Virus record (IMG/VR): IMGVR_UViG_2623620497_000002
Direction: 5' to 3' (one strand)
DNA: 4,307 nucleotides
Source of the DNA: a virus
Taxonomy: Duplodnaviria > Heunggongvirae > Uroviricota > Caudoviricetes
The translations under genes were made by a program, and so were the position numbers. This document shows positions 1 to 4,307 of this stretch, one piece after another (the first letter of the stretch is position 1; each line of letters opens with the position of its first letter). The notes under the pieces were generated by a model, which was not told the DNA's origin, did not search any database, and saw only the letters and a program-made list of their open reading frames with translations.

Positions 1-502
1 ACTGAGCCGACGTCGCGGCCTGCCCGGCTGATGTGCTGGCTGCACGTGCTGAGCCTGCAGCATCAGTCGCATGGGTTGCCGCCTCACGGGCTGATGTGCC
101 GGCATCGCTGGCTGACTTCTTCGCGGCTGCCGTGTTCTGTGCCACTGCGGACGCGTTACGCGCCACCTCTTCCACCATCAGTTCAAAGCGGCGCAGTGCC
201 TCCGGACGGGCATCATCCTCCGTCATGGCACCGAGAAAATCATTCAGCGTACCCGGTTGTGAGTCTTCATACACGGTGATGGTCCCGGCATGCGATGGCG
301 GGAAGCCTTCCACCATCAGAATAACGCTGTACTGACCGTACTCAACGTCCATGCTGTAACGCCCGGCTTCATCCGGATTTTCTGAGGCCACCGTGTTCAC
401 CACCACCGTGGTGCTGTTACGTTTTGCTTTCAGCTGGATTGTGCAGTTCTGTACCGGTTTACCTGCACCGTCTTTCAGTACACCTGAAATCTTTACTGCC
501 AT
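1..502 (-). CDS. stf: Side tail fiber protein (Stf family), N-terminal 167 codons only; the gene runs off the left edge of the window
   Basis: Minus-strand ATG at 502..500 with a GGGGGG run 3 nt upstream as a Shine-Dalgarno-like element. My own translation is open for 167 codons to position 2 with no stop: MAVKISGVLKDGAGKPVQNCTIQLKAKRNSTTVVVNTVASENPDEAGRYSMDVEYGQYSVILMVEGFPPSHAGTITVYEDSQPGTLNDFLGAMTEDDARPEALRRFELMVEEVARNASAVAQNTAAAKKSASDAGTSAREAATHATDAAGSARAASTSAGQAATSAQ. This matches, from memory, the conserved N-terminal domain of lambda Stf (orf-401) and E. coli StfR, followed by the start of the Ala/Ser/Thr-rich shaft. It sits immediately after lom as in lambda. It is absent from the supplied ORF track because there is no stop inside the window; the plus-strand ORFs 31..279 and 33..335 are its antisense shadows. 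Confidence 0.85.
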   Translation of the reverse strand, partial: MAVKISGVLKDGAGKPVQNCTIQLKAKRNSTTVVVNTVASENPDEAGRYSMDVEYGQYSVILMVEGFPPSHAGTITVYEDSQPGTLNDFLGAMTEDDARPEALRRFELMVEEVARNASAVAQNTAAAKKSASDAGTSAREAATHATDAAGSARAASTSAGQAATSAQ

Positions 503-510
503 ATTCCCCC

Positions 511-539
511 CACAAAAAAGCCCGCCTGAACCGGCGGGC
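511..539 (-). terminator. Rho-independent terminator downstream of lom (minus-strand orientation)
   Basis: The minus-strand transcript reads GCCCGCC-GGUUCA-GGCGGGC, a 7-bp all-GC stem (forward 520..526 pairing with 533..539) with a 6-nt loop, followed directly by UUUUUUGUG (forward A-run 514..519). It lies 28 nt after the lom stop codon. On the plus strand the hairpin is not followed by a T-tract. Confidence 0.6.
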
Positions 540-566
540 TGTCATAACACTGTGTTACCTGGCTAA

Positions 567-1166
567 TCAGAACTTATAACCGACACCCACGATGAAACCG
601 TCAGTGCGCCAGTCGCCACTGCCGGAGCCTTCATAAGCAATATCAATGGCCACGGATTCGGTCGGGTTAAACTGCACGCCAGCCCCCCACGCCAGAGACG
701 TGTTGCTGCGGCGACCGTCATCACTTCCGGTCAGCACTTCGTGCGTTTTCCCCTTGTTGTCAGTTACGCGGAGATAATCCCCGGAGAAAGTCGAAATACG
801 GCTGTAAGCCACACCCGCCATCGCATACGCGCTGAACCATTCATTCACGCGCACAGACGGCCCCGCCATCACGCTGAACCAGCGGTTACGCACGGAATCT
901 TCATGCCAGCGGGTATCGCTGTAATGAGTCAGCTGGCGATTCTTGTCTCCTGCATAGCTGAATGACGTCACCAGCCCTAGTGTGTCCGTAAACTCATAAC
1001 GGTATTTCACGTTAATCCCGTTCAGATCATCGCTGCCGGGAACGTTCGTCGAGGCATGAAGATAGCCCGCGCTCAGCGTGGACTGATGTTCAGACGCCCA
1101 TGCAGGCGCACCGGATACGGCCAGACAGATGGCTGCGGACAAAATGGCGGCATAAAGTTTACGCAT
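567..1166 (-). CDS. lom: Lom-family outer-membrane beta-barrel protein (Ail/Lom/OmpX/PagC family), 199 aa, intact
   Basis: ORF-track protein MRKLYAAILSAAICLAVSGAPAWA... has a typical Sec signal peptide (AWA-SE cleavage context), alternating amphipathic beta-strand pattern and a C-terminal ...GFIVGVGYKF ending in Phe, which is the outer-membrane barrel signature. The C-terminal half (DIAYEGSGSGDWRTDGFIVGVGYKF) is identical to what I recall for lambda Lom, and the whole protein is near-identical to my memory of E. coli Rac LomR. Minus-strand start ATG at 1166..1164 is preceded by GAGAGG with 5-nt spacing; stop TGA at 569..567. Confidence 0.93.
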   Translation of the reverse strand: MRKLYAAILSAAICLAVSGAPAWASEHQSTLSAGYLHASTNVPGSDDLNGINVKYRYEFTDTLGLVTSFSYAGDKNRQLTHYSDTRWHEDSVRNRWFSVMAGPSVRVNEWFSAYAMAGVAYSRISTFSGDYLRVTDNKGKTHEVLTGSDDGRRSNTSLAWGAGVQFNPTESVAIDIAYEGSGSGDWRTDGFIVGVGYKF

Positions 1167-1187: not shown

Positions 1188-1214
1188 AATAAAAAAGGCG
1201 CCAGAAATGGCGCC
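1188..1214 (-). terminator. Rho-independent terminator between the J-derived ORF and lom (tJ-like position)
   Basis: The minus-strand transcript reads GGCGCC-AUUUCU-GGCGCC, a 6-bp all-GC stem (forward 1197..1202 pairing with 1209..1214), followed by UUUUUUAUU (forward 1188..1196). It lies in the 68-nt spacer between the stop at 1235..1237 and the lom start. Confidence 0.55.
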
Positions 1215-1234
1215 CGCATATGGGTTATGAAAAT

Positions 1235-2110
1235 TCAGCTAATCGTGATACCTGCTGTGGATTTCTTCATCACCACAACCAGCAAATCGCTGATACTGGC
1301 TGTGGGATACCAGTCATTTACCAGCCACGCTGATACCGAAAACTCCAGCGTCATGTGACCGCGACCAGCAGGCATATCAATAACACCTGTATAAACCAGC
1401 GTATTATCCAGCGCGGTACGGTTATAAATTTCAGCACCGTTTTTCTTCACTATCAGGCGGCATGACGAATAAATATCGTTATTCTCCCGCTCATGTTTAG
1501 CGCCACGAAACGCCACCGCGGGAATAACAATCTGCCGGTCAAACGGCTGATCGTCATAAACCCTGACGGTAATGGTCCCTGATGGCCACCGCTCCGGTGC
1601 ACGGGAGTCCCGGGGGAAAGCTTTGCCCACTGTTTTAACAAGATCGCCTTCAATCTGGTTCGCGGACAGTTTTCCCAGAACCCGACAGTTCTCGTTAATC
1701 GTGACATTGTTGAGCGTCCCGGCGTTCGCATTCACACTGCCACTGATATCCGCATTTTTAGCGGTCAGCTTTCCGTCCGGTGTCAGGGAAAATACCGGTG
1801 GATTTCCACCACTGGTAATGGTGGGGGCCGTCAGGCGTTTGAGGAACACGTCGTTCATGAATATCTGGTTGCCCTGCGCCACAAACATCGGCGTTTCATT
1901 CCCGTTTGCCGGGTCAATAAACGCGATACGATTGGCGGCAACCAGAAACTGGCTCAGTTTGCCTTCCTCTGTATCCTCCATGCTGAGGCCAAGCCCCGCG
2001 ACATAATGCTTACCGTCTTCGGTCTGCTCAATTTTGACGCCCCACATGGCGTTCCATTTATCGTTAGCGTCCTTCCACTCTTTCGAAAACTCCTCCAGTC
2101 TGCTGGCGTT
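1235..2110 (-). other. J: 3' fragment of a J-like tail tip / host-specificity gene (C-terminal ~290 codons including the receptor-binding domain), fused to the upstream head gene
   Basis: ORF residues ~650-940. A long near-identical block to the lambda J C-terminal region as recalled ([78 protein letters not shown]), then a diverged receptor-binding domain; lies immediately upstream of lom. The 5' limit is uncertain by roughly 100 nt or more. Confidence 0.7.
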
Positions 2111-3865
2111 ATCCTCCGTCAGCTCGACTTTTTCCAGCAACTCCTTGCCGAGATGGGATTCGGTTACCAGTACGAACGCAGGACGAATATTCAGATGACG
2201 CTCCCCCTCTTTCTGAACGCGCATCAACTGGCGGGCTTTATCCAGCGATGCCACGTCCATTGCCGCGCTCTCCAGTACGTTTGCATGTTTCGCTTTATCG
2301 AACAGACTTACATTATCTGTGGAGATTTTCGGGTTAGACGTCAGAATGGCATAAACCAGATCGGCAATAGTGGATTTCGCCGCACGGCCCAGCTTCATCG
2401 GGACATCGGTCAGCATATTCAGATCATCATTGATAATGGCCTGACGGGTGATACTGAACAGCTCGCCATAGGTCGCCAGTGCAATAGTGGCCTGTTTATC
2501 TCCGGTGGTGACGTATTTATATTCCGCCCCTTCACGCACCTGACGCAGAGCACTGAAGCCCCCCATACCCACACGATGGGCAATTTTAAAATCAGACAAC
2601 TGACCTTTCCGCGTCCACTGTTCATAGGTTTCAGGGGCATCTTCCCAGCCCTGCAGAATGGCTTTGTTCGCAACATCCAGCAGAATATTACCGAAGTCAG
2701 ACGTACTGTGTGTGAACGCCGCACCGACCATCTGCATCGGGTTATAACCGGAAACCCCAATACCCCGTTCAGTTAGTGACATACGGGCATATTCACGCAG
2801 GGTCATCCCGTTGTAGACATTATCACGTTCGGTTTTTTCAAATCCGGCACGCGCCATCAGCGCCTGGCGGATCCCGTCCCCCACAAAATTACCGTTACCG
2901 GCATAAATATGAGCCGGGGTATTTTTATTGGATGGCGTGGACTCGCGCCCCATCTCGTTCAACAGCTTTTCACGGGCCTGCTCCAGCGAACATTCAGGAT
3001 CGGCAAGACACTGGGCCTGCAGCATCTGATAACGCCCGCCAAACATGGCAAACAGATCATTAATACCGTTTACACGCGCTTTTTGCTCTGCCAGTACCTG
3101 CGCACGGATACTGTTTTCATCCACCACGGGTGCTGCTGCCTGCACTGGCGTCCGGGAGGCTGCAGGTTCATCATCCTGTACGCGTGGAGCACTGTTGCGT
3201 GGCGGAGTAATCATGTTTCGAATGGATTCCGGCATCTTTTTAAATTCCTCTGTACGTTTTGACTGAATACATGCCATTGCCTTAACGGCTGGTGTCACCT
3301 GATCAGCAAATCCCTGTGCCAGACATTCGGCACCGGACATCCAGGTCTCATCCGCCAGCATGGCAGCAATTTCATCGGTGGTTTTCCCGGTTTTCTGTGC
3401 ATAAGCGGGTAACAGAACCGCCTCAACTTTATCGAGCAGGTCGGCATAGGTGCGCATGTCCTCCGCATCACCGCCCGTAAAGCCAAATGGTTTATGAATC
3501 ATCATGAAGGAGTTTTCCGGCATAATGACCGGGTTTCCCACCATCGCAATGACCGACGCCATTGACGCCGCCACACCGTCGACATAAACGGTAATGGACG
3601 CACCATGTGTTTTCAGTGCATTAAAAATGGCGATGCCTTCAAAGACATCGCCACCCGGTGAATTAATATGGAGATTAATGTGGGTGATATCGCCCAGTGC
3701 ATTCAGATCACTGATAAACTGCTTCGCTGTAACACCCCAGAAACCAATCTCGTCATAAATATAAATATCCGCGTCACTCTGGTGACCTGCCTGCATCCTG
3801 AACCAGGAATTATTCTTCGGACTGGTCGTCGGTGTGCTGCGGCTCCTGTCATTTCGTTGCGGCAC
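1235..3865 (-). CDS. Chimeric ORF (about 876 aa from the proposed GTG start): ClpP-family (S14) prohead protease, scaffold-like linker and Mu gpT-like major capsid domain, fused in frame to the C-terminal ~290 aa of a lambda J-like tail-tip/host-specificity protein. Probable deletion-derived fusion and likely non-functional as a structural gene.
   Basis: Single uninterrupted minus-strand frame (ORF track 1235..4057). N-terminal part: [14 protein letters not shown]...[16 protein letters not shown]...[10 protein letters not shown]...[12 protein letters not shown] carries the ClpP catalytic Ser context (AASM, compare E. coli ClpP GQAASMGA) and His context (MIHKP, compare ClpP MIHQP). Middle: ...[13 protein letters not shown]...[19 protein letters not shown] resembles Mu-like major head subunit gpT as I recall it (weaker evidence). 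C-terminal: ...[106 protein letters not shown]... then a diverged ...VIDMPAGRG...[14 protein letters not shown], which matches my memory of the lambda J C-terminus (which ends ...VMVIKKQALGISVV). Position directly upstream of lom fits J. Start: GTG at 3865..3863 with a perfect AAGGAGG 5 nt upstream, overlapping the portal stop; the TTG at 4057 that opens the longest ORF overlaps the portal by 208 nt and is unlikely to be used. Confidence 0.7.
2123..2812 (-). other. Mu gpT-like (HK97-fold) major capsid domain, probably lacking its C-terminal end (approximate limits)
   Basis: ORF residues ~416-645. Motifs [11 protein letters not shown] and [19 protein letters not shown] resemble the N- and C-proximal conserved blocks of Mu gpT as recalled from memory; this needs a profile search to confirm. 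A protease-capsid arrangement in one polypeptide is known in prophage head modules. Confidence 0.45.
3293..3775 (-). other. ClpP-like serine protease domain within the chimeric ORF (approximate limits)
   Basis: ORF residues ~95-255. Catalytic Ser codon TCA at 3565..3563 within GVAASMAS and His codon at 3496..3494 within MMIHKP; HINSPGGDV motif upstream. Limits estimated by eye. Confidence 0.8.
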
Positions 3866-4307
3866 TGCTGCCTCCTTTATCACTGGCCGGATCGGTATCA
3901 AATACCAGATCCAGCTTGCGGTTTTCATCAATTTCGGCCTTGCGCCGACGTTTGACATCATCCGGATTACGACCACCTGCACGTACCCAGTCTGATTCTG
4001 TCGCCGCTCCACCACGAATCTGAATTTTCCAGGCCTCAGCCTCCTTAACAGGGTCAATCCACGGCATCACCGGTCCGGAATACACCGCGGTATACAGTGA
4101 AGATCGGTCCAGATCGCGGGGTAGCCTGATAACACCGGATGCCACAGCCTGTTTCAGCCAGGCACGGTACATCGGGCGGGTGACGGCACCAATAAACCAG
4201 TCCTGCAGGATCAGGTAGCCATCAGTAGATTCAACCAGCTCCTGACGCTGGGCGCTGTAAGTGCCGTTATAGTTGCGCGCTGTACTGGAAAAACTCAGAC
4301 GACTGCC
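3849..4307 (-). CDS. Portal protein, C-terminal 152 codons (5' end of the gene lies beyond the right edge of the window)
   Basis: The minus-strand frame is open from the window edge: my translation of 4307..4173 gives [45 protein letters not shown] with no stop, continuing into the ORF-track protein MYRAWLKQ...[10 protein letters not shown], so the ATG at 4172 is internal. Stop TGA at 3851..3849. The call as portal rests mainly on gene order (immediately upstream of, and overlapping, the prohead protease start) and on the charged, flexible C-terminal tail typical of portals; direct sequence recognition is weak. Confidence 0.55.
3871..3877 (-). promoter_or_regulatory. Shine-Dalgarno sequence (AAGGAGG) for the prohead-protease/chimeric ORF
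   Basis: Reverse complement of forward CCTCCTT at 3871..3877 gives AAGGAGG, with a 5-nt spacer (CAGCA) before GTG at 3865. It lies inside the last codons of the upstream portal ORF, suggesting translational coupling. Confidence 0.6.

Follow-up and report, generated by a model that had tools for sequence, protein, structure and literature searches.

A head-gene and J chimera in a defective lambdoid prophage of Escherichia coli, probably the scar of a recent deletion

The locus and its chimeric reading frame

The window, as the whole stretch of 4,307 nucleotides analysed in this work is called, contains the end of a phage portal gene, a long open reading frame (ORF) that joins residues 1-567 of a head protein to residues 823-1131 of the tail-tip protein J, an intact lom gene and the beginning of stf. 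An earlier note, made from the sequence alone, had described a head-tail chimera within one ORF followed by lom and stf, and this description was confirmed by Pfam domains, by the Ail/Lom match and by longer public contigs. The features of the window are as follows.

1..502, minus strand: N-terminal part of stf (side tail fibre), with its ATG at 502-500, running off the window
519..540, minus strand: predicted terminator-like hairpin with T-run between lom and stf (consensus scan)
567..1166, minus strand: lom, intact, for a 199-aa Ail/Lom outer-membrane beta-barrel protein (Pfam Ail_Lom, 6.4e-122, full profile)
1196..1215, minus strand: predicted terminator-like hairpin with T-run directly after the stop of the chimeric ORF (consensus scan)
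1235..3865, minus strand: chimeric ORF, 876 aa plus stop (ORF reading and public contigs)
1235..2166, minus strand: J-derived part, with the final 309 codons and the stop of a J gene of 1131 codons
about 1238-1630, minus strand: C-terminal receptor-binding domain PF12421 (profile positions 1-135 of 135)
about 1715-2098, minus strand: tail-tip fibre domain PF09327 (profile positions 2-138 of 139)
2165..2166, no strand: deletion junction (three-way alignment of the window with the J side and the head side of prophages L011 and L004)
2165..2734, minus strand: truncated major-capsid domain, residues about 378-567
2165..3865, minus strand: head-derived part, codons 1-567 of a 675-codon ClpP-like prohead protease/scaffold/major capsid gene
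3296..3772, minus strand: ClpP-related head maturation protease domain, residues 32-190 (NCBIfam NF045542, 2e-64, and alignment to ClpP chains)
3849..4307, minus strand: 3' end of the portal gene, running off the window (annotated as phage portal protein in all relatives)
3871..3878, minus strand: Shine-Dalgarno-like AAAGGAGG, located 5 nt ahead of the GTG start codon (read from the sequence)

The longest ORF track at the locus covers 1235..4057 on the minus strand and is 940 aa long. Within it, the GTG at 3865-3863 was chosen as the start codon, as this is the start used by gene callers and by RefSeq for the intact homologue, and the stop codon is at 1237-1235. The portal gene, which in full length matches Pfam Phage_portal_2 in the longer contig L005, overlaps the chimeric ORF by 17 nt. 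Numbered on the 940-aa track ORF rather than on the 876-aa protein, the Pfam matches are CLP_protease at residues 95-255 (4.9e-36), Phage_capsid_4 at 442-643 (2.7e-35; truncated, with profile positions 7-168 of 262), Phage_Tail_Tip at 654-781 (8.8e-34) and Ig_GpJ_C at 810-940 (8.6e-39, full profile). Matches to Pfam, NCBIfam and the PDB give the domain order ClpP, truncated capsid, J fibre and J receptor-binding domain. The junction falls between residues 567 and 568 of the 876-aa protein, equivalent to 631/632 of the track ORF; the transition from capsid to J had been recognized correctly, but the true junction is about 15-20 residues earlier than first placed. No signal peptide or other added feature was found in the chimera, which appears publicly as 'DUF1983 domain-containing protein' (NCBI) or 'ClpP-like prohead protease...'.

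The DNA of the head half is 99.8% identical to the gene of the M16807/ATCC 25922 prophage, with 3 differences that are all synonymous. Against NCBIfam NF045540 the chimera scored 804.7 bits, above the curated cutoff of 475, with incomplete coverage (profile positions 2-548 of 652), while the intact protein of L011 spans profile positions 2-651. Intact homologues are 675 aa long, and 108 residues of the native capsid C-terminus are gone from the chimera. The predicted catalytic residues are Ser101 (3563-3565, in GVAASMAS), His124 (3494-3496, in MMIHKP) and Asp172 (3350-3352, in LADETW). All three align with the solved ClpP chains 1y7o and 6hwm, in which the counterparts are AASM, MIHQP and Asp. 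The contexts of the ClpP-type Ser-His-Asp motif are conserved, as had been claimed for the Ser and His motifs. The capsid segment had been expected to be gpT-like (PF10124), a family for which only a sub-threshold match was obtained (0.0049, 16.7 bits against a cutoff of 20.1); it is better assigned to Phage_capsid_4, and when this middle segment was checked for J-family hits it matched capsid families and not J families. Protease, linker and capsid together form a native, unbroken 675-aa gene (NF045540) in the functional phages mEp460, cdtI and phi458, which carry J elsewhere in the same genome. The scar is thus the capsid-to-J join only. The earlier note was right on that join, whereas the protease-capsid fusion, which it had also counted among the fused parts, is native to the phage group and no scar.

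The DNA of J, lom and stf is 99.5% identical to that of NCTC11129 and 99.95% identical to that of JML285, and the protein of the J half is 100% identical to residues 823-1131 of J in L011. It matches residues 821-1131 of the solved lambda J (8iyk) with an E-value of 3.6e-136, and the fibre and receptor-binding domains are complete. The lambda-type J family NF049904 scored 487.4 bits, below its cutoff of 1950, with only profile positions 856-1163 of 1163 matched, which shows the N-terminal hub domains of J to be missing. The predicted hairpin after the chimeric ORF has an 8-bp stem with 6 GC pairs followed by TTTTTTATTGC, and that between lom and stf an 8-bp stem with 7 GC pairs followed by TTTTTTGTGGG. 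Translation of stf starts MAVKISGVLKDGAGKPV, i.e. MAVKISGV...; in longer contigs the same gene has PF08400 phage_tail_N, and in JML285 it is annotated as 'prophage tail fiber N-terminal domain-containing protein'.

The junction, the missing segment and its carriers

Aligned to the apparently complete prophage of NCTC11129 (L011), the window forms two collinear blocks of 99.5% and 98.7% identity with one gap of 11,832 bp. Against the prophage of M16807 (L004) the flanks are 94.2% and 99.8% identical and are again separated by one gap, of about 11,426 bp. The presence of only one gap (11.4-11.8 kb) relative to two intact prophages agrees with the one large in-frame deletion that had been proposed. 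The gap contains DUF2190/cement, the head-tail adaptor, Z, U, V, G, T, the tape measure, M, L, K and I, together with the last 108 capsid codons and the first 822 J codons; in L011 it holds 13 genes plus parts of two more. Four longer contigs (L005-L008), each matching the window at 100% identity, carry portal, terminase and lysis genes upstream of the chimeric gene, and lom and stf directly after it.

The only exact homology between both parents at the joint is the TA at window positions 2165-2166, which lies in an imperfect match TCGGT(T)A on the plus strand. On the coding strand, with a slash marking the joint, the head gene reads CTG GTA/CCG and J reads AAG ATA/ACC, and the scar is CTG GTA ACC. 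In the protein, the residues around the joint are RPAFVLV/TESHLGK. The junction breaks at exact nucleotide positions and not at domain boundaries. When a deletion joins two co-oriented genes, the frame is expected to stay open in about 1 of 3 cases, and the in-frame outcome is therefore unremarkable.

At least 24 independent contigs, drawn from isolate assemblies at NCBI, metagenome assemblies at ENA and Logan, encode the exact chimeric protein; carrier strains include those of GCA_054157515.1, GCA_017731695.1 and GCA_965258225.1. The junction was missing from 50,697 phage records, the best of which hold the two halves at separate places, so that the intact phage with this contiguous gene, for which the earlier note had suggested looking, was not found among them. 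Likewise, the junction was not found in 5,426 complete E. coli genomes or in GTDB species representatives. Carriers are identical to one another within the ORF. There are no amino-acid differences from the parents either, and the five nucleotides that differ from the nearest intact alleles are all at synonymous third positions. At the protein level both halves are thus 100% identical to their counterparts in intact phages; the deletion therefore appears to be recent, and for this reason the open frame is uninformative on selection. A single Logan contig (L015) has this junction too, together with another receptor-binding domain, of lambda type, and with SNPs at distances of 25 nt and 99 nt from the joint, which suggests that the junction has recurred or that its age is greater than the identity figures imply.

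No intact ancestor matching both halves at 99.8% or more was found. The head half is matched best by prophages of the M16807/ATCC 25922 type and the J half by different ones, of the JML285/NCTC11129 type, and the ancestor was therefore reconstructed from mosaic relatives. A location in the thrW prophage may be suggested, the only hint being the near-identity of J-lom-stf to JML285.

Related scars and the origin of the joint

Further head-J chimeras were identified in public E. coli assemblies, with the same parent genes and orientation, in frame and followed by lom (or stf). Given as head codon/J codon, these are P0002 (567/729), P0034 (257/823), P0104 (257/773), P0006 (374/765), P0007 (about 372/712), P0100 (273/897) and P0003 (500/489). 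The endpoints of the present junction are shared to the nucleotide with P0002 on the head side and with P0034 on the J side. Endpoint combinations and prophage backgrounds differ among the head-J chimeras, and the 257/773 junction is found in combination with several variants of the receptor-binding domain and is present in three complete genomes. The same head gene was also found fused to L, tape measure, portal or terminase in independent chimeras, and several out-of-frame scars of the same region are present in complete genomes, where they are about as easy to find as in-frame ones. Given the many independent chimeras and out-of-frame scars, such deletion events are common. The abundance of in-frame chimeras is an ascertainment effect, because a protein search returns in-frame products only.

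The locus is best explained as a recent deletion scar in a defective lambdoid E. coli prophage, the result of ordinary prophage decay, a reading to which a probability of roughly 0.78 is assigned. Illegitimate (non-homologous) recombination would have removed ~11.4-11.8 kb, from head codon 567 to J codon 822/823, and the joint between these co-oriented genes would have happened to keep both frames, leaving a single 876-codon ORF. From the head gene the chimera keeps the native ribosome-binding site and start, and from J the native stop and terminator-like hairpin. The prophage retains its lysis genes, terminase, portal, lom and stf, and has lost the C-terminal third of the capsid domain, cement, the head-tail adaptor, all tail shaft and assembly genes and the J hub. 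Owing to the loss of these head and tail genes, the prophage would be expected to make neither capsids nor tails, as the earlier note had predicted from the head-completion and tail genes missing at the locus. Transcription of the chimera would be confined to that of the late operon, provided the operon can still be induced, and the chimeric protein is most likely a by-product without selected function. We infer a deletion in one step, as we do the enzymes behind the joint.

The proposal of a single deletion is supported, with the qualification that the scar is one of many similar ones and that an origin in two steps retains a small chance. In such a history, a deletion from head codon 567 to J codon 729, as at the P0002 junction, would have come first; slippage over 282 bp would then have occurred between TAACCG, a short direct repeat present at the P0002-type junction, and the native AGATAACCG in J codons 821-823. 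The head-side breakpoint of P0002/L012 is identical (CTG GTA/) and is joined to J codon 729/730, and in native J the 9-bp sequence AGATAACCG occurs twice as a direct repeat, at codons 728-730 and at codons 821-823, the two copies being 279 bp apart. Short-range slippage between repeats of 6-9 bp is a well-established deletion route in E. coli. However, the 1,701-nt head part common to the window and P0002 has 29 differences, the first 600 nt beyond J codon 823 have 92, and the lysis modules of the two differ as well. A descent in two steps would therefore require recombination events flanking the joint, to within about 100 nt of it on either side.

Recombination between two prophages, on one chromosome or during co-infection, is a very unlikely substitute for an internal deletion. 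The head half is nearest to Qin-type prophages (99.8%) and J-lom-stf to the thrW remnant in JML285 (99.95%), with only 94% identity to its counterpart in the Qin-type prophage. Lambdoid prophages are mosaic, however, and the intact prophage of NCTC11129 already unites both halves, at 98.7% and 99.5%; gene order and orientation, moreover, are those of one late operon with one gap. Under either origin the joint would be illegitimate, because only 2 bp of homology are shared.

Just as little credence is given to the chimera being a retained functional gene, such as a dominant-negative inhibitor of capsid or tail-tip assembly directed against superinfecting relatives, or a cytoplasmic decoy formed by the J fibre and receptor-binding domain. 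The open frame, a ribosome-binding site that appears strong, and a catalytic triad and two J domains that are apparently intact would fit such a role. Several other in-frame ClpP-J chimeras persist, e.g. 257/773, and virion-assembly inhibitors encoded by prophages are known from other systems (PMC10884400). Against a retained gene, an open frame is expected by chance in about a third of cases, zero amino-acid changes since the deletion mean that there has been no time for decay, ascertainment accounts for the in-frame abundance, and the chimeras have neither added features nor junctions at domain boundaries. Finally, every carrier contig is short (<20 kb) and prophage repeats break assemblies, but an assembly or sequencing artefact is effectively excluded because the identical protein and junction recur across independent NCBI, ENA and Logan assemblies, 2 bp of homology is far below any assembler k-mer and analogous scars are present in closed long-read genomes.

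A side observation concerns the endpoints themselves, several of which are reused: head codons 111, 257 and 567, J codons 729, 773 and 823, and a site in the Z tail gene. The reuse is exact to the nucleotide in independent scars with different partners, for some endpoints from either side, and most of these joints share TA alone, in contexts such as CWGGTA/ and RGATA/. A purely random one-off event does not predict such reuse of endpoints, which counts against that simple form of the deletion reading. IMG/VR was scanned with a 15-base pattern for continuations other than the native ones beyond head codons 257 and 567, which gave 60 hits, all but one due to chance; the exception, L059, carries the 257/773 junction. 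It is conceivable, if rather doubtful, that a site-preferring breakage-and-joining process partly drives the decay of lambdoid prophages, and that chimeras might occasionally persist as assembly inhibitors. Candidates for such a process would be a nuclease, a type II topoisomerase, a recombinase acting on pseudo-sites or the homology-facilitated illegitimate joining of fixed-end fragments. For the TA joints, DNA gyrase is a candidate: when stabilised by quinolones, its cleavage takes place before G, with a stagger of 4 bp (PMC6379681), and the gyrase register reproducing the joints (GGTA/GATA) fits on one strand only. Integration sites of helper-embedded satellites (HE-PICIs) were rejected as a cause, as no breakpoint sequence occurs in the att files of PMC10111431; the ClpP att core is 30 nt away from the recurrent codon-111 endpoint. 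Quasi-sites of Din-family invertases (Pin/Gin) and target motifs of integrons or IS elements gave no convincing fit to the consensus sequences, and Chi sites, present only upstream of the head gene, gave no support for the TA joints.

The locus itself is another example of prophage inactivation by internal deletion, in line with ordinary decay. Automated annotation can pass such a deletion chimera off as an ordinary protein, and surveys of domain architecture should be read with caution, since 'architectures' of ClpP, capsid, J fibre and receptor-binding domain are scars and not designs. Only the reuse of breakpoints could open a new question; should this reuse hold up in a large and unbiased collection of scars, it would point to a specific, testable mechanism of prophage decay.

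Comparison with known systems

HE-PICIs interrupt lambdoid late genes at fixed positions, including this ClpP domain (Tommasini, Mageeney & Williams 2023, PMC10111431), and the att core ATGATGATCCAT corresponds to codons 121-124 of the chimera. In contrast to HE-PICI insertions, the window holds no satellite, integrase or att junction, and the site is unoccupied. The native 675-aa gene of NF045540 (scaf_prot_MCP1; mEp460, cdtI, phi458 and Ayreon) provides the closest comparison for the head half, with residues 1-567 of the chimera 100% identical to the M16807 allele. Native gene and chimera are alike in start codon, ribosome-binding site, portal overlap, protease domain and Ser/His/Asp triad, and differ in that the last 108 capsid residues have been replaced by 309 residues of J.

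These last 309 residues correspond to 821-1131 of lambda J (8iyk, 8xcj, 8jvm; NF049904). As in lambda, Phage_Tail_Tip and Ig_GpJ_C are complete and are followed by lom and stf; unlike lambda J, the chimera lacks the 822 residues of the N-terminus (hub and Ig/FN3 domains) and has another allele of the receptor-binding domain.

Among known scars, that of the K-12 Rac prophage consists of a ynaA tape-measure fragment, lomR, stfR and tfaR, and the tail genes have been lost there too. Defective O157 prophages and cryptic-prophage scars are described in PMC2669165 and PMC3945230. As in Rac and the O157 prophages, lom, stf and tfa are kept and truncated fragments of structural genes abut. Unlike those scars, the present joint is in frame and forms a long ORF, and the terminase, portal and lysis genes are still there.

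Composition of the chimeric ORF

All window genes lie on the minus strand and are transcribed in the order portal 3' end, long ORF, lom and start of stf.

Features of the window
4307..3849, minus strand: portal gene, 3' end
4057..1235, minus strand: longest ORF track, 940 codons
3865 (GTG start)..1235, minus strand: chimeric ORF, 876 residues; start as in intact homologues and from gene callers
1215..1196, minus strand: terminator-like hairpin and T-run just past the chimeric ORF stop
1166..567, minus strand: lom (Pfam Ail_Lom, 6.4e-122)
540..519, minus strand: terminator-like hairpin and T-run past lom
502..1, minus strand: stf, start of gene

The GTG at 3865 sits 5 nt after AAAGGAGG, and the 876-residue ORF, to which residue numbers refer here, overlaps the portal stop by 17 nt. 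The hairpins at 1196-1215 and 519-540 have GC-rich stems and are probably native terminators bracketing lom.

The earlier note had described an ORF joining a ClpP/capsid head part to the C-terminal part of J and followed by lom and stf. The window holds lom and the start of stf, and the head-tail chimera was confirmed by domain matches from Pfam, NCBIfam and solved structures. Pfam identified CLP_protease (4.9e-36), Phage_capsid_4 (2.7e-35, profile positions 7-168 of 262 only), Phage_Tail_Tip (8.8e-34) and a complete Ig_GpJ_C receptor-binding domain (8.6e-39); the Mu-like gpT family PF10124, anticipated as the capsid domain, fell below the Pfam threshold. NCBIfam assigned residues 32-571 to NF045540, ‘ClpP-like prohead protease/major capsid protein fusion protein’ (804.7 bits against a cutoff of 475; profile positions 2-548 of 652), and residues 576-876 to lambda_TipJ (487 bits against a cutoff of 1950; profile positions 856-1163 of 1163). 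The C-terminal part corresponds to lambda J residues 821-1131 in the solved structure 8iyk (E 3.6e-136), and ClpP of solved structures could be aligned to residues 54-191, with S101, H124 and D172 in motifs (LADETW for D172). The fusion of head and J parts within the ORF was thus upheld, with its boundary at 567/568 (631/632 of the longest track) instead of near 645-650.

The join between protease and capsid is native, and the only abnormal joint in the window ORF is that from capsid to J. RefSeq annotates an unbroken 675-aa protein named as the NF045540 family adjoining the portal in the apparently complete M16807 and NCTC11129 prophages. Isolated phages (phi458, mEp460, cdtI, Ayreon, Tritos and others) also have this gene, at 98.6-99.0% identity, with J elsewhere in the genome. 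Genomes with the 675-aa gene lack a further capsid gene downstream of it, where a cement protein and a head-tail adaptor alone are encoded.

The junction, its carriers and its origin

By megablast the window divides at 2160-2166: a prophage remnant of strain JML285 matches positions 1-2166 at 99.95% identity, and the head region of M16807/ATCC 25922-type prophages matches 2160-4307 at 99.8%. Against the NCTC11129 prophage the two halves are 99.5% and 98.7% identical, with order and orientation kept and one gap of 11,832 bp spanning the tail genes; the gap against M16807 is about 11,426 bp, after removal of a 1-base alignment gap placed at the joint by BLAST. The native frames are joined in register against either prophage, and this single collinear gap agrees with the one large internal in-frame deletion that had been proposed. 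Missing from the window relative to NCTC11129 are 13 whole genes (cement, adaptor, Z, U, V, G, T, tape measure, M, L, K and I, plus a hypothetical gene), the last 108 capsid-gene codons and the first 822 J codons, so that the product consists of head residues 1-567 and J residues 823-1131. On the coding strand (a slash marks the break) the head sequence CTG GTA/CCG ACG and the J sequence AAG ATA/ACC GAA become CTG GTA ACC GAA in the window. The exact shared bases are TA only (2165-2166), inside an imperfect TCGGT(T)A similarity.

The exact 876-aa protein, named ‘DUF1983 domain-containing protein’ by NCBI, was present on at least 24 contigs (30 index blocks) from NCBI isolate, ENA metagenome and Logan assemblies, which excludes an assembly artefact. 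Four carrier contigs are 100% identical across the whole window, and two others, the metagenome-derived L009 and L010, differ solely at 4161, 4167, 4230 and 4305, all in the portal gene; the chimeric ORF was invariant among all carriers examined. These carriers look like one recent lineage. They encode, in this order, methyltransferase, holin, lysozyme, Rz-like, SDH-type Clp-fold protease, small and large terminase, gpW-like, portal, chimera, lom and stf, and no tail genes were found in the carrier contigs. The junction was not found in 5,426 complete E. coli genomes, 50,697 phage records or GTDB species representatives. The 300-aa SDH-type serine protease gene (PF01972; L005:2874-3776, also in carriers L006-L009), located between the lysis genes and small terminase, encodes a second, unrelated Clp-fold protease of the same late region and is probably cargo.

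Relative to the M16807 allele the head half has 3 nucleotide differences, and the J half has 2 relative to the NCTC11129 allele. All five differences are synonymous third positions; therefore each half is identical in protein to a functional phage allele. No change could be assigned to the period after the deletion, and because the elapsed divergence is so small an open 2.6-kb frame is expected under neutrality. The prior for an in-frame outcome is about one third. That the frame is open, the ribosome-binding site strong and the triad intact is a matter of inheritance and not evidence of function.

These data support a deletion scar that affects the capsid-to-J joint alone, the protease-capsid fusion being native. 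Most likely, a single illegitimate deletion inside the late operon of an integrated prophage was followed by clonal spread of the deleted prophage. Provided that the prophage is still inducible, transcription of the chimera would proceed together with the late genes, and its translation would start from the native signals of the head gene. About 40% of the profile is missing from the capsid domain and the J part lacks everything that anchors J in the tail tip; we infer that the protein would be unable to enter capsid lattice or tail and would have no selected role. A recent deletion scar without selected function is given a probability of about 0.78.

A less likely two-step route would begin with a junction of head codon 567 to J codon 729 and then require slippage of TAACCG at the new joint against native AGATAACCG at J codons 821-823. 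This intermediate architecture exists in P0002, another chimera of the same head gene, although its haplotype is very different. In native J of NCTC11129, AGATAACCG forms a perfect 9-bp direct repeat (codons 728-730 and 821-823, 279 bp apart, in frame), the second copy of which is partly kept in the window (2160-2166, TAACCGA). The pair offers a substrate for slippage deletions within J as well as for a two-step origin. An inter-prophage event is another, unlikely origin of the joint. The idea that the chimera is kept for a role of its own, for instance to disturb the assembly of related phages, has intactness in its favour and nothing beyond.

Recurrent breakpoints

Both endpoints of the window junction recur in other scars. 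The head endpoint after codon 567 (CTGGTA/) is common to the window and P0002, and the J endpoint before codon 823 (GATA/ACC) to the window and the chimera P0034, joined from head codon 257. Besides P0034, head codon 257 (CAGGTA/) serves as an endpoint in P0104 (IMG/VR record L059; to J codon 773) and in P0115, which keeps the opposite side and has terminase as partner. Four different scars end at J codon 773 (GGATA/GCC): on their left stand head codon 257, a sequence from the early region of JML285, the end of a Z-like gene (VE-V10-F) and a holin gene (Z1323HEC0423). Three chimeras (P0116, P0117 and P0118) share head codon 111 as their right endpoint and retain the head gene from precisely there, each with a different upstream partner, namely portal and two terminase positions (L080:8001-10256, L081:793-3786). 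The joint of P0117 carries a 15-nt filler, CGTGCTGGTGGTCGT, containing a perfect Chi octamer, and the terminase-side break is again CAGGTA/. One Z-gene site is used from opposite sides in strains N169 and 2 HS-C.

Breakpoint coordinates, window and other sequences
window 2165-2166
L012:9212-12124 (contig of P0002)
L013:10001-11701
L016:6001-7932
L018:6001-9411
L003:17290-17340
L084 (about 5145)
L085:4990-5010
L059:8846

At about half of the nucleotide-resolved joints the two sides share TA alone or chiefly TA. The recurrent endpoints (head 257, 567; J 729, 773, 823) coincide to the nucleotide, and TA is the sole shared sequence at most of their joints, for example in the contexts CWGGTA/ and RGATA/. 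By our own rough estimate, which is not a tool result, a uniform model expects about 0.1 shared codon endpoints in the sample. Part of the reuse owes to ascertainment, given only three in-frame G/GTA sites in the head gene and only eight ATA codons in J, and some joints could be nested derivatives of one another. Neither explains the TA preference or the same sites in out-of-frame scars. The Logan contig L015 (L015:2284-4413, SRR31115745) carries the exact window junction followed by a lambda-type receptor-binding domain, with SNPs 25 nt downstream and 99 nt upstream of the joint and an upstream terminase that is also truncated; it represents either recurrence, post-deletion recombination or a mosaic contig.

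HE-PICI satellites integrate at fixed sites in late genes of these prophages (PMC10111431), and were rejected as the cause since no recurrent site is among their att sequences (PMC10111431). The HE-PICI ClpP att core ATGATGATCCAT (site C:CLP_protease:110, PMC10111431) is present and unoccupied at 3494-3505, minus strand, as ATGATGATTCAT, with one mismatch; it encodes M121-H124, including the predicted catalytic His. Gyrase cleavage rules (PMC6379681) fit the recurrent sites only partially. Breakpoint reuse stays a lead, and a specific mechanism behind it is unlikely.

Related scars and known systems

A search with the chimera in a 5.8-billion-cluster protein collection, which can return only the in-frame third of scar events, yielded head-J fusions at 567/729, 500/489, 374/765, about 372/712, 257/823, 257/773, 273/897 and one more site. 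The same head gene also came up fused to tail protein L, tape measure, portal and terminase. Among P0004, P0008 and P0119 the head gene itself has duplication-type in-frame joints (residue ~385 to 71 and ~367 to 184) and an internal in-frame deletion (residue 404 to ~516), each on a single contig. Out-of-frame scars of the region occur in the complete genomes of N169, 2 HS-C, JML285, strain 573, AR437, VE-V10-F and Z1323HEC0423. In the related N169 prophage remnant, located at pao/thrW, two scars lie side by side, with 124 bp of the Z tail gene (L001:9716-9839) isolated between them, a J fragment on one side and a truncated ClpP gene on the other; this remnant therefore represents an independent decay path and not a derivative of the window architecture.

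The prophage Rac of K-12 has reached the same end state, with a tape-measure fragment followed by lomR, stfR and tfaR. Given the many similar chimeras, the out-of-frame scars and Rac, the window scar is a new example of a well-known process. Functional phages such as mEp460 have the same protease-capsid gene, and the window differs from them in the capsid-to-J joint.
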